From: Candidatus Poriferihabitaceae bacterium
GTDB taxonomy: Bacteria; Pseudomonadota; Gammaproteobacteria; Arenicellales; Poriferihabitantaceae
Length of the DNA stretch: 64,000 nt
NCBI GenBank assembly: GCA_965249035.1
Contig: CBDFKV010000003.1
Location: 66,814 to 130,813, forward strand
Reading direction: 5' to 3'
Shown here: one piece after another, positions 21,452-24,012 of the stretch
Layout of the letters: every line of letters starts with the position of its first letter
How positions within the stretch are numbered: the first letter of the stretch is position 1
Position numbers and translations under genes: made by a program
The notes under the pieces: generated by a model
The model's database searches: none
Told to the model about the DNA's origin: nothing
What the model saw: only the letters and a program-made list of their open reading frames with translations

Positions 21452-21485
21452 CCGGGCCTCGAACCCAGAACCACCTGATTAAAAG
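21452..21485 (-). repeat. partial tRNA-Lys copy (anticodon loop to T-arm), 32/34 identical to 23948-23981
   Basis: I aligned the two copies base by base. ccgggCctcgaacccagAaccacctgattaaaag compares with ccgggTctcgaacccagGaccacctgattaaaag in the intact tRNA. Both copies have the same orientation. The flanks (acceptor stem, anticodon stem 5' side) do not match. Confidence 0.75.
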
Positions 21486-21760
21486 AGGTAGCAATTAAAT
21501 CACTTAATACTTATAAACAGTAAGTTAGCACGCTTCCATTTCTGTTTTGTGCCAGAAATAGACAGTAAATAGCAGTATTTTTGTTTTGGATTGACACAAC
21601 ACTGCCACAGCTACTCACGTCAAACCCCAGCAATCGAGCCGTATCAGAGAAGGACTAGAGTATTCGATCTTAGCTGGTGACTCTTAAAACACATCCTCTG
21701 AAATGATCTAGATACAGTCCAATGGCGGCTGGCTACAGCACTTCCCTTGCAGGCGAATAT

Positions 21761-21787
21761 TAGAATATGCAATTAATTGCAATTCTA
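21761..21787. promoter_or_regulatory. inverted repeat (perfect 14-bp core TGCAATTAATTGCA, flanked by TAGAAT/ATTCTA arms) upstream of nirS
   Basis: I read this directly from the sequence. The core spans 21768-21781, and the outer arms at 21761-21766 and 21782-21787 pair with a 1-nt offset. It lies about 120-140 nt upstream of the nirS ATG. The binding factor is unknown. Confidence 0.35.
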
Positions 21788-21903
21788 GCAAATATCCTCT
21801 ATAACCATAATATTCACGTGGATTCATCTAACAAAAAGCTGTGCGTCCATGTTTTTACAGCATAGATCTCAATTTTTGCTAGATCACCTTTCTGGAGCCC
21901 AAC

Positions 21904-23835
21904 ATGAACAGATATACCTATTCGGTGTCTATGATTGCCGTATTCGCCTTTCTTTTATCATTAACAGTTCAAGCTCAAGCCCCAGGTAAAGAAACCCAAT
22001 GTTTTGCCTGCCACGGAGTGAATGGCGTTAGCTTAAATCCAGAATTTCCTTCACTGGCTGGTCAAGGTAAGGCCTATGTAATCAAGCAACTGAATGCCTT
22101 TAGAAATGGAGACCGAAAAAGCCCGATTATGAATCCAATGGCGGCTGGTTTAAGCGACGAGGACATTGCAAATGTAGCTGATTATTTTTCTAGTAAAACA
22201 GCCGGTGGTGGGGAAGAAATTGCAAAAGGCTATGAAGGTGCAGCTTCTGGCATCGATACCAGCACGGTCAAAAAAGTAGGACAAGCTTCCGGCATTGCAT
22301 TGTCAGATGAAGAATTTGAAACTGGAAAAGAAATATACTTTCAGCGTTGTGCAGGCTGTCATGGGGTCTTACGGAAAGGTGCGACAGGCAAGCCGCTTAC
22401 TACAGATATCACCCTTGCACGAGGTGCTGAATACCTAAAAACCTTCATCACCTATGGCTCTGCAGGTGGAATGCCGGCATGGGGAGAGACTGGAGTTCTG
22501 TCTGAAGCAGAAATTAACATTATGGCCAAGTATCTACAGAACGAGCCACCCGTCCCTCCTGAATATGGGATGAAAGAGCTGAATGCGAGCTGGAAATTGG
22601 TGGTGCCCGTGAATGAACGGCCTACTTCTAAATTAAATGATTACAACATTGAAAATATTTTCTCAGTAACGCTTAGAGACGACGGCAAAATTGCGCTAAT
22701 TGACGGTGATAGTAAAGAAATCATCAGCGTGATTAAAACGGGGTATGCCGTTCACATCTCAAGGATGTCTTCTTCTGGACGCTACCTGTTTGTTATTGGT
22801 CGCGATGCGAGGGTTAACTTGATCGACTTATGGATGGCGCATCCTGAAACGGTCGCGGAAATCAAAGTAGGATTAGAAGCCAGATCGGTTGAAACCTCCA
22901 AATTCGAGGGTTATGAAGACAAGTACGCCATTGCCGGGACCTACTGGCCACCCCAATTTGTCATTATGGATGGGGATACTTTAAAACCAATAAAAGTTGT
23001 GTCTACTAGAGGCATTGCGGTAGAAACCGGTGAATACCACCCAGAGCCGCGGGTAGCAGCCATTATTGCCTCACATGAGAAACCGGAATTCATTGTAAAT
23101 GTTAAAGAAACCGGCAAGGTACTGATGGTCGATTACAGTGATCTTATCAACCTAAAAATAACCCATATTGATGCTGCTCGCTTTCTGCATGATGGAGGAT
23201 GGGATTCTACGCATCGGTACTTCATGTCAGCGGCGAACAAGTCTAACAAGATTGCGATCATTGATTCAAAAACCTCTACTCTAACCAAGTTGGTTGAGGT
23301 TGGCAAAATTCCTCACCCGGGCAGAGGCGCCAATTTTATCGACCCTGAATTTGGTAAAGTTTGGGCCACTTCTCATTTAGGTGATGGGTCTGTTTCTTTG
23401 ATTTCTACAGATGCATCAAAGCCATACGCCTGGAGCGTGGTAAGAACATTGGAAGGGCAAGGTGGCGGTTCACTATTTATCAAAACACATCCGAAATCTA
23501 AAAATCTCTGGGTGGACACTGCACTTAATCCTGATAAGGGGATGAGTCAATCTATTGCTGTTTTTGATATTGATCATCCCGAAAAAGATCATGAAGTGAT
23601 TCCTATCGCAGAAATGGCTGATTTGGGCGATGGCGCGAAACTTGTCGTTCAACCGGAATACAACAAAGCGGGCGATGAAGTGTGGTTCTCGGTATGGAAC
23701 GGCGCAGATCAAAAATCTGCTATTGTTGTCCTGGATGATGTAACACGACAATTAAAGACAGTCATTAAAGATGAACGTTTAGTCACCCCAACGGGTAAAT
23801 TTAATCTCTATAACACTCAACACGATATCTACTAA
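21904..23835 (+). CDS. nirS: cytochrome cd1 nitrite reductase with additional N-terminal monohaem cytochrome c domain
   Basis: It is collinear with remembered P. aeruginosa NirS: [90 protein letters not shown]. It also has a signal peptide and an extra c4-like block CFACHG...FPSLAGQ. Confidence 0.92.
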
Positions 23836-23870
23836 TTTCTACATCGAGAGGCTAAGTTACAAACTACGTG

Positions 23871-23909
23871 AACCCCGGATGGGTACATCCTTATCTGGGG
23901 TTTGGTTTT
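23871..23909 (+). terminator. candidate intrinsic terminator after nirS
   Basis: A stem accccggat / atctggggt (9 bp with one G-U pair) with a 12-nt loop, followed by the T-rich tail ttggtttt. It begins 36 nt after the nirS stop. Confidence 0.5.
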
Positions 23910-23936
23910 AGAGTAGCTGTAAGTTTTTGATTTAAA

Positions 23937-24012
23937 TGGTGGGGCGTCCGGGTCTCGAACCCAGGACCACCTGATTAAAAGTCAGATGCTCTACCAACTG
24001 AGCTAACGCCCC
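23937..24012 (-). tRNA. tRNA-Lys (anticodon UUU)
   Basis: The reverse complement folds by hand as a cloverleaf: GGGGCGT TA GCTC AGTTGGT AGAGC A TCTGA CTTTTAA TCAGG TGGTC CTGGG TTCGAGA CCCGG ACGCCCC A CCA. It has a 7-bp acceptor stem and an encoded CCA, and it resembles E. coli tRNA-Lys. Confidence 0.93.

Follow-up and report, generated by a model that had tools for sequence, protein, structure and literature searches.

A solitary nirS gene of foreign composition beside a tRNA-Lys(UUU) gene and an att-like fragment of it in an uncultured marine gammaproteobacterium

In the PAPI-1/pKLC102 family of Pseudomonas aeruginosa, integrase-bearing ICEs of 80-110 kb have the 3' end of a tRNA-Lys gene as their site. 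CIMEs, known from work on Streptococcus thermophilus, are integrase-less remnants flanked by att sites that probably arose from a larger integrative element by deletion. The term CIME is used in ICEberg 2.0 (PMC6323972) and in a review of IMEs (PMC5704250). Among the 3919 islands mapped with Islander, 2083 have anticodon-centred sites and 3760 have 3' fragments, and the anticodon loop, the T loop and the T/acceptor junction are the crossover sublocations (PMC4383910). In the examples described by van der Gulik et al. 2023 the tRNA 3' end is kept and 9-23 kb with element genes are enclosed; one of the elements, PYG1, is 21.4 kb long and is flanked by 44-bp repeats (PMC9897764).

The DNA analysed here, referred to as the window, is a 64-kb stretch (64,000 nt in full) in which a nirS gene is found between an intact tRNA-Lys(UUU) gene and a partial copy of it. 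A sequence-only reading had proposed that this arrangement is an islet that integrated at the tRNA gene. The features of the locus are the following:

21340-21451, no strand: variable spacer from the upstream region of a 992-aa gene to the tRNA fragment, where the contigs of relatives diverge; 46.4% GC
21452-21485, minus strand: truncated tRNA-Lys copy, positions 32-65, 32/34 against 23948-23981; candidate relic att repeat
21486-21610, no strand: AT-rich 125-nt arm adjoining the fragment, common to the nirS-less X11 relative; 34.4% GC
21611-21903, plus strand: nirS leader/promoter region, homologous in X6 and sediment contigs; 41.3% GC
21904-23835, plus strand: nirS, cytochrome cd1 nitrite reductase, 643 aa, with Pfam Cytochrom_D1 and two haem c domains
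23870-23912, plus strand: predicted nirS hairpin terminator, a 14-bp stem then UUUGGUUUU; folding MFE -28.4 kcal/mol, z -2.2
23912-23936, minus strand: native-looking tRNA-Lys 3' trailer, identified by a blastn match to the MAG Bpl_19 (L167)
23937-24012, minus strand: intact tRNA-Lys(UUU) (ARAGORN; Rfam tRNA, 70.5 bits)
24069-24097, minus strand: predicted sigma-70-type tRNA-Lys promoter, TTGACA-17-GATAAT, 11/12 consensus positions

Both ARAGORN and Rfam place the intact tRNA where the sequence-only reading had located it, and the direct repeat that it had described is real: the fragment has the orientation of the tRNA and lies 2451 nt downstream of its 3' end, and the 32/34 identity was obtained again. 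When up to three mismatches were allowed the 34-nt segment had two matches in the 64-kb window, the fragment and the intact tRNA only, and the chance expectation was 0 in 100 shuffles. A dispersed repeat family was discarded as the source, as neither the 64 kb nor the fetched loci contained extra copies of the fragment, the adjoining arm or the trailer. The fragment itself was called by neither ARAGORN nor Rfam, and the Rfam scan of the region 21000-24300 returned nothing except the tRNA. The fragment begins with the anticodon loop (nt 32) and stops where the T stem ends, and both edges are sharp, the same-register identity being 5/31 over tRNA positions 1-31 and 1/11 over positions 66-76. The acceptor 3' strand and the CCA are therefore missing from it, as the original caveat about the extent of the repeat had it, and the trailer motif that is found beside the intact tRNA is absent at the fragment.

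Compared with the PAPI-1/pKLC102 elements, the locus has the same isoacceptor as a hot spot in Gammaproteobacteria, but none of their machinery is found here and the repeat covers another part of the tRNA. It resembles CIMEs in that two att-like direct repeats enclose a short cargo and there are no recombination or transfer genes; unlike in CIMEs, one repeat is truncated, the second is an intact tRNA whose trailer looks native, and the locus is not known to have a partner element or integrase. With the Islander tDNA islands (Hudson, Lau and Williams 2015, PMC4383910) the locus shares an intact tRNA, DNA of foreign composition and a cognate same-orientation 3'-side fragment, whose 5' edge falls at the anticodon-loop crossover subsite. 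It differs from them in lacking a tyrosine integrase, in its very small size (2.45 kb with one cargo gene), in a fragment that ends at the T stem without acceptor stem, CCA or native trailer, and in an intact tRNA that is followed by a native-looking trailer where the classical model expects element DNA. As in the cases of van der Gulik et al. 2023 (PMC9897764), the far end of the insert is marked by an incomplete, non-functional copy of a complete tRNA nearby; unlike in those cases, the fragment lacks the tRNA 3' end and the islet is devoid of element genes.

We think that the fragment is probably an att scar. Positions 66-76 are missing while the divergence inside the fragment is merely 2/34, and an extra deletion is therefore needed. 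Alternatively, nirS could have entered without site-specific recombination, the fragment being unrelated and derived from a partial tRNA duplication or from a decayed tandem tRNA-Lys. Variants of this explanation are homology-facilitated illegitimate recombination anchored on the universally conserved tRNA-Lys, or replacement in a fast-evolving intergenic region. A decayed tandem tRNA would require two independent deletions that left exactly positions 32-65, and anchor-based recombination does not predict a duplicated piece of tRNA. Also against entry of this kind are the 5' edge of the fragment, at an anticodon-loop base that is a known integrase crossover site (PMC4383910), and the unusual AT richness of the arm that adjoins the fragment. 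In its favor, there is no integrase. With the further observations in its favor that are given below, we regard such an entry as unlikely, although it deserves real weight.

The other side of the locus was compared with L167 (Bpl_19) and L168, two more distant relatives. The tRNA-Lys is identical in both (76/76) and its -35 and -10 boxes are kept, and the synteny of tRNA-Lys, nitrilase and hydrolase genes on the 5' side of the tRNA is shared. The alignment with Bpl_19 extends 25 nt beyond the tRNA 3' end (blastn), and the trailer motif ACTTACAGC is found at equal offset in the window and in Bpl_19. These 25 nt resemble the Bpl_19 trailer, so that the flank 3' of the intact tRNA seems to be native and not part of an element. 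A native-looking trailer speaks for entry of nirS without site-specific recombination, as does the complete identity of the tRNA-Lys in three distant genomes, which makes it a good homology anchor. The DNA 3' of the tRNA-Lys in L167 and L168 is unrelated to that of the window, and both genomes are too distant to define borders. In Bpl_19 a membrane-protein gene lies 3' of the tRNA-Lys and nirS is on a different contig.

The DNA enclosed by the repeats (21486-23936, 2451 nt, 43.2% GC) consists of a 418-nt leader with 39.2% GC, nirS and the hairpin terminator, in good agreement with the AT-rich leader of about 420 nt, nirS and terminator of the sequence-only reading. The only ORF of at least 60 aa in the islet besides nirS is a spurious one inside it. 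No integrase or transposase domain was found in the 47 window ORFs of at least 150 aa, and there was no integrase, excisionase or any other mobility gene in the 64 kb; the absence of an integrase, already noticed for the islet, thus extends to the whole window. Screening of the 657-nt intergenic region for remnants of an integrase or cytochrome gene, by six-frame translation and by tblastn with NirS, gave nothing but stop-riddled frames. The leader includes a 14-nt palindrome, TGCAATTAATTGCA, at 21768-21781 (a self-inverse match). A 22-nt match between leader and nirS (21718-21739 and 22134-22155, 19/22), which reads P-M-A-A-G at the protein level, was set aside as it appears to be due to chance. 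The hairpin at 23870-23912 was not called by a simple terminator scan; it may also end transcription of the tRNA-Lys on the opposite strand.

The product of nirS shows Pfam matches to Cytochrom_D1 (487 bits, profile positions 2-368 of 368), Cytochrome_CBB3 and Cytochrom_C. Its residues 105-643 align end to end with the canonical NirS proteins of P. aeruginosa (1nir/5guw, 837 bits) and Paracoccus pantotrophus (1qks, 733 bits), and the protein shares with them the CXXCH motif of haem c and the d1 beta-propeller domain. The match to 6rtd, an entry deposited as 'Cytochrome c' that we take to be NirN, reached 114 bits, against 837 bits to 1nir/5guw. As judged from its amino acid sequence, the 643-aa protein is a NirS, with haem c and d1 propeller, closer to NirS than to NirN or NirF. 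Unlike canonical NirS it has an extra N-terminal c4/c552-like haem c domain, at residues 27-101, which matches cytochrome c4. Exact-sequence look-ups of NirS and of the 992-aa protein returned no record. The gene is also solitary, unlike in the canonical case: none of nirM/C/F/D/L/G/H/J/E/N, among them the genes for haem d1 synthesis and maturation (nirECFDLGHJN), is found within the 64-kb window, and the gene content bears out the description of nirS as standing alone among housekeeping genes.

The base composition sets nirS apart from the rest of the window. Its GC content is 44.3% (z -3.2), against 50.05% for the window, and its GC3 is 0.396 (39.6%, z -3.7), the mean being 0.528; both values are the lowest of the 47 genes. 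The codon-usage distance is 0.091, while other genes of more than 400 aa are within 0.024-0.057, and the GC content of the nirS leader is below the 47.2% of the pooled intergenic DNA. The earlier hand counts had the direction right, and the difference is significant, but the 37-40% GC quoted was too low; the 992-aa neighbor, which had also been thought slightly GC-poor (43-47%), has 48.3% GC and is no outlier. Thus nirS has the atypical composition that is expected of horizontally acquired DNA. One could propose instead that nirS is native and vertically inherited, the low GC3 reflecting a gene-specific constraint, its absence from X11 a deletion, and the fragment being incidental. The GC3 of nirS is the most extreme of the 47 genes and deviates in the direction opposite to that of the genes for BipA, GlyQ and the like, which are conserved and typically strongly expressed. 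In addition, the GC content of nirS equals that of its flanks in NirS-bearing relatives, and here it is 5.7 points below them.

The comparison of homologues bears on the same question. The closest NirS proteins, with 83-88% identity, come from marine MAGs with 40-45% GC; there, too, nirS stands alone and has no link to a tRNA. For BipA of the same organism the identity to GTDB genomes does not exceed 72%, and its top matches include none of those MAGs. By pairwise identity, the similarity of NirS to other lineages far exceeds that of this housekeeping marker, which points to transfer and away from vertical inheritance. Bpl_19, with the same tRNA-Lys synteny, does have a NirS of the same clade (L003, 83% identity), as a native nirS would have it, and a solitary nirS is the rule in the clade; the location of the Bpl_19 nirS on another contig, and the membrane-protein gene 3' of its tRNA-Lys, argue the other way. 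Among the 16 closest nirS loci, not one (0/16) has a tRNA within 10 kb of nirS. Marine-sediment contigs carry nirS at about 94% nucleotide identity; the shared stretch covers only about 21852-23865, and the contigs continue downstream for over 500 nt with no tRNA-Lys. Such a module, tight around nirS and reaching neither repeat, again agrees with entry without site-specific recombination. No relatives of NirS were found on viral contigs. Plasmid-borne nirS genes exist and were considered as specific relatives; they were dismissed, as they have only 65-70% nucleotide identity.

Run X11 includes a relative with about 90% nucleotide identity that covers both flanks (14-32 kb, depth 5-15) and has depth 0 at nirS. 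Coverage at the nirS 5' end in X11 consisted of spurious 18-22-nt matches, in two pieces, from one unrelated contig and was disregarded. The X11 relative lacks 21611-23930 and keeps 21458-21610; the right border is not seen, because the X11 contigs break at the tRNA. A 397-nt X11 contig includes 21458-21610 at 87% identity followed by 242 nt unlike the window. As this nirS-less relative keeps the fragment and the 125 nt inside it, the repeat is not the border of the difference in nirS presence, which lies near 21610 and does not coincide with the repeat. That the fragment persists without nirS is a further point for entry of nirS independently of it. In the X6 relative both leader and nirS are present, with 86-97% identity and a depth similar to that of the flanks, as would be the case for a native gene. 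With the evidence from composition and homologues against it, we consider the native origin improbable; that nirS is foreign and strain-variable is very likely.

The X6 and X11 contigs, which were read no further than 30-nt loose ends, follow the window to 21339 (one X11 variant to 21373) and then continue with unlike sequence. A loose end of X11 after 21339, 'TGGTGCGGGGG', was examined as another tRNA 3' end and rejected, as it has no match to tRNA-Lys and is missing in X6. Homology in the leader begins at 21693 in X6 and at about 21852 in the sediment contigs, this region being absent from X11, and the homology of the X6 and sediment nirS contigs ends at 23859-23865. No joint skipping the islet was found in contigs of the source sample, a form of assembly that drops rare variants. 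The 992-aa neighbor was of little help in this comparison: no close GTDB relatives were found through it, a search with its N-terminal 300 aa gave no match above 70% identity, and its homologues with 73-76% identity were useless as empty-site comparators, having no synteny with the window.

The break of contigs at the tRNA raises the question of whether the nirS side and the nitrilase side could be an assembly chimera that arose from low-coverage metagenome data by joining at the tRNA-Lys repeat. By appearance the source runs are metagenomes of about 5x depth, the tRNA has a depth of several hundred in the X1 and X2 runs, and Logan contigs end inside the tRNA from both sides (X1, 23963/23979; X2, 23994/23966) with no bridge. 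The depths of the two sides match, however (5.1 and 6.5 in X1, 2.9 and 3.0 in X2), X11 has relatives of both sides at similar depth and identity, and one single contig of Bpl_19 has both the nitrilase-linked tRNA-Lys and a trailer of it that matches the one on the nirS side. A chimera is hardly credible on these grounds.

Taken together, the results favor the view that nirS was acquired horizontally and lies in a tRNA-Lys hot spot that bears an att-like scar. The tRNA-targeted islet of the sequence-only reading survives in part. In agreement with it are the intact tRNA with downstream DNA and a same-orientation 3'-side fragment that starts at the anticodon loop, a solitary and compositionally foreign nirS that is absent from a relative at about 90% identity with both flanks, and a tRNA 3' side that differs in two relatives with the same 5' side. 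Against it are the lack of an integrase, a fragment without positions 66-76 and the native trailer, the native-looking trailer at the intact tRNA, the fragment and 125 nt kept in X11, the sediment nirS without a downstream tRNA-Lys, and the 0/16 tRNA-linked closest loci. A single integrative islet bounded by both repeats is not demonstrated, and integrase-mediated delivery of nirS is plausible but unproven; that one integration event both brought nirS and made the repeat is possible, although we are inclined to doubt it.

The explanation that seems best overall, and that we hold to be somewhat probable, combines a strain-variable tRNA-Lys hot spot, the scar of a decayed element and an acquired nirS unit. 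The DNA directly 3' of the native tRNA-Lys(UUU) would be a strain-variable insertion hot spot. The fragment would most likely be a truncated direct-repeat relic of a tyrosine-integrase element that inserted at the anticodon-loop sublocation, the integrase and the remainder of the element having presumably been lost since, and its acceptor/CCA end and trailer may have been removed by a later rearrangement in the spacer at 21340-21451. Between the repeats there would be a self-contained acquired nirS unit of leader, gene and terminator, at about 21611-23911. This unit has a foreign composition and is present or absent among relatives, and its source may be a marine gammaproteobacterial lineage of lower GC content. 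It would either be cargo of the element that has survived or have reached the same scar later, two histories that the data cannot separate, and the islet would now be immobile by itself. A bolder proposal is that the three-domain nirS, leader and terminator included, forms a cassette of one gene, integrase-less and mobilized in trans (CIME-like), that uses tRNA-Lys anticodon-loop att sites and is spreading among marine Gammaproteobacteria. Such a cassette would explain why nirS is always solitary in the clade and in a different context in each genome, but we consider it very improbable.

No new mechanism is implied, as tRNA-linked islands, their decay and the transfer of nirS are already well known. 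The locus illustrates how a tRNA fragment may outlive the element that made it. If our interpretation is correct, an uncultured marine gammaproteobacterium can gain or lose the nitrite-to-NO step, a key one in denitrification, with one self-contained gene at a tRNA hot spot. It appears that of two relatives with about 90% nucleotide identity one has nirS and the other lacks it, and this bears on how denitrification potential is inferred from taxonomy or from MAGs.

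The ORF at 21904-23835 is the single real ORF between an intact tRNA-Lys gene and a partial copy of it, and the DNA that these enclose (21486-23936) is referred to here as the islet. Judged by its sequence, this ORF is a true NirS. A Pfam scan of all 47 window ORFs of at least 150 amino acids showed housekeeping functions throughout, with no integrase or transposase and no other nir, nor, nos or haem d1 genes among them, as the sequence-only reading of an integrase-free islet with a solitary nirS had it. The surroundings include the following features.

Features of the locus and its surroundings
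18268-21246, 992-aa aminotransferase/2-hydroxyacid-dehydrogenase fusion (Pfam, NCBIfam)
23937-24012, minus strand, tRNA-Lys(UUU), with its own promoter, TTGACA-17-GATAAT
In the window, glyQS (Pfam)
In the window, phosphonate ABC transporter (Pfam)
In the window, nitrilase-family amidase (Pfam)
In the window, cell-wall hydrolase (Pfam)
In the window, copA (Pfam)
In the window, pilMNOPQ (Pfam)
In the window, aroKB (Pfam)
In the window, gltBD (Pfam)
In the window, hemE (Pfam)
In the window, metG (Pfam)

Hundreds of proteins of about 990 aa from Alpha- and Gammaproteobacteria are homologous to the 992-aa protein, a fusion enzyme of wide distribution that is poorly characterised; Pfam recognises its C-terminal 2-hydroxyacid dehydrogenase domain alone, and the N-terminal ~600 aa give only weak SerC-like NCBIfam matches. 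The pilM gene looks split at 43439-44527 into a 146-aa N-terminal piece (43439-43879) and, after a gap of about 190 nt, a 152-aa C-terminal piece (44069-44527; PilM_2 profile positions 202-337), which points either to a pseudogene with a frameshift or to an error of assembly at ~5x coverage.

Pfam identifies in NirS a Cytochrom_D1 domain (487 bits) and two haem c domains. With Pseudomonas aeruginosa NirS, residues 105-643 align at 837 bits; entry 6rtd, a deposited 'Cytochrome c' that we take to be NirN, gives 114 bits. A match to cytochrome c4/c552 covers residues 27-101, and the 643-aa protein consists of an additional c4/c552-like haem c domain at the N terminus (residues 1-101, window 21904-22210) followed by a complete canonical NirS. 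The same build recurs in a NirS clade of over 40 protein clusters (641-646 aa, 80-88% identity), and a comparable nirS/cytochrome c551/552 fusion has been mentioned for Chloroflexi (PMC10999283). The gene is preceded by a 418-nt leader of 39.2% GC, and a 14-bp hairpin followed by UUUGGUUUU is also enclosed between the tRNA copies. A self-inverse match revealed a perfect 14-nt palindrome, TGCAATTAATTGCA, at 21768-21781, placed 123 nt before the nirS start codon; a dimeric regulator might bind there, and the palindrome is no match to the FNR/Dnr box TTGAT-N4-ATCAA. The leader segment 21718-21739 is identical at 19 of 22 nt to 22134-22155 in the first haem c domain of nirS (P-M-A-A-G as protein), and with no wider homology found around it this match is probably due to chance.

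The composition of nirS is well supported as foreign. Its GC content is 44.3% (islet 43.2%, window 50.05%), which makes it the lowest-GC gene of the 47 (z -3.2); the gene had been called GC-poor before, at 37-40% from hand counts that proved too low. Its GC3 is also the lowest of the 47 (0.396 vs a mean of 0.528, z -3.7), and its codon-usage distance is 0.091 vs 0.024-0.057 for all other genes above 400 aa. Conserved translation genes are typically highly expressed, and since their GC3 here is high (BipA 0.573, GlyQ 0.567), codon-usage selection would push in the opposite direction. The leader lies below the pooled intergenic GC (47.2%). The 992-aa gene, thought from the sequence alone to be slightly GC-poor (43-47%), is at 48.3% no outlier.

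The nearest NirS proteins (83-88% amino acid and 76-78% nucleotide identity) belong to marine gammaproteobacterial MAGs of 40-45% GC, in which the GC of nirS equals that of its flanks within ~0.02 in most loci and 0.04 at most. No tRNA was found in the fetched flanks of the 16 closest nirS loci, and at three fetched loci (L084-L086) nirS is also solitary among unrelated housekeeping genes. No GTDB match of BipA exceeds 72% identity, and the best ones are Chromatiales, Sedimenticola, Thiorhodococcus and symbiont MAGs, not the MAGs with close NirS; the 992-aa protein reaches 76% at best, sharing no synteny with the window. NirS thus has far closer matches in other lineages than the remainder of the genome does, which suggests transfer. 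Homologues of nirS at 65-70% nucleotide identity are carried by plasmids (NZ_CP072750.1, NZ_CP005961.1 and others) of Thiothrix fructosivorans, Pseudomonas mandelii JR-1, Roseibium and others. Such genes indicate that nirS does travel on mobile replicons, though none of them is close to the window nirS.

The tRNA-Lys(UUU) is the sole tRNA that ARAGORN finds in the window, and Rfam supports it with 70.5 bits. On the same strand, 21452-21485 is identical to 23948-23981 at 32 of 34 positions, and the 34-nt segment has only these two matches in the 64 kb at up to 3 mismatches and none in 100 shuffles, in agreement with the intact gene and same-orientation copy described earlier. The fragment spans tRNA positions 32-65: it opens with the first base of the anticodon loop and closes with the last base of the T stem, and its two mismatches lie in the variable loop and in the T loop. 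Outside it, identity in the same register drops to 5/31 (positions 1-31) and 1/11 (positions 66-76). The match thus begins and ends abruptly, and it leaves out the acceptor 3' strand and CCA, an omission noticed at the outset.

Near relatives were seen in public sequencing runs (X1-X4 are the source sample) as short Logan contigs; these stop at the tRNA, and the right-hand border in runs X11 and X6 lies outside them. The X11 relative, at roughly 88-93% nucleotide identity, covers 14000-32000 on both sides of nirS at depth ~5-15, and its depth across nirS is 0; the only two pieces placed on nirS were 18-22-nt matches from one unrelated contig and were rejected. It retains 21458-21610 at 87% identity, that is, the tRNA fragment and the adjoining 125-nt arm (34% GC), on a contig that runs on for 242 nt unlike the window. 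In the X6 relative the flanks are 91% identical, the leader from 21693 and nirS are 86-97% identical at similar depth, and 21340-21692 is not alignable. Three marine sediment runs (X5, X7, X9) contain nirS at ~94% nucleotide identity with homology only over ~21852-23865, and no tRNA-Lys downstream of it in more than 500 nt of contig. Taken together, these data indicate that the presence of nirS varies among near relatives and that the same gene occurs in more than one context.

The 34-mer of the tRNA is present in only two GTDB genomes, MAG Bpl_19 (locus L167) and MAG 3300053785_172 (L168). Both share a tRNA-Lys/nitrilase-family amidase/cell-wall hydrolase block with the window (L167 435-2032, L168 4512-6093, window 23937-25524), in which the nitrilase and hydrolase genes follow on the tRNA 5' side in window order at 53-56% amino acid identity. 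The tRNA-Lys is identical at 76/76 positions with the same promoter boxes, though the neighbouring proteins are only ~54% identical. On the 3' side are the end of a membrane-protein gene in Bpl_19 and glpK plus a LysR fragment in L168; nirS is found there neither in Bpl_19 (434 nt available) nor in L168, and L168 has no tRNA fragment on that side. Bpl_19 does have a NirS (83%), on a different contig (L003). The LysR fragment (3690-3968), a 92-aa substrate-binding domain ~540 nt from the tRNA 3' end, suggests that genes have decayed at this spot in another lineage too. The first 25 nt past the window tRNA (23912-23936) align with the Bpl_19 trailer, with ACTTACAGC at the same offset, so the tRNA 3' flank looks native rather than element-derived, which cuts against a classical integration model. 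The window comes from a metagenome assembly of ~5x depth, and no Logan contig bridges its join across the tRNA; in favour of a correct join are the matching depths of the two sides and the trailer in Bpl_19.

The fragment matches the Islander signature in its same orientation, its downstream place and a 5' edge that falls on the anticodon loop. Because of this geometry, the frequency of anticodon-centred sites, the commonest class with 2083 of 3919 islands (PMC4383910), and the pervasiveness of integration as a source of tRNA fragments (PMC9897764), we moderately favour an att scar as its most likely origin. A single event leaving one islet bounded by two repeats is not demonstrated: against it stand the missing integrase, a fragment without positions 66-76 or the native trailer, an intact tRNA that retains a native-like one, the nirS-less X11 relative that still has the fragment and arm, and a nirS module common to other organisms tight around the gene. 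Of the tRNA-targeted islet proposed initially, the geometry and the foreign composition stand; the single repeat-bounded unit is undemonstrated. Two histories fit the data. A nirS-carrying element may have integrated and decayed, with nirS later lost by internal deletion in the X11 lineage, or the scar may be older and nirS a later arrival. It is well supported that nirS is strain-variable and sits in variable DNA 3' of a native tRNA-Lys, and the initial observation is confirmed, its interpretation being supported in part. We read the locus as an islet that has decayed and lacks an integrase, lying at a tRNA-Lys hot spot and holding an orphan nirS of horizontal origin.
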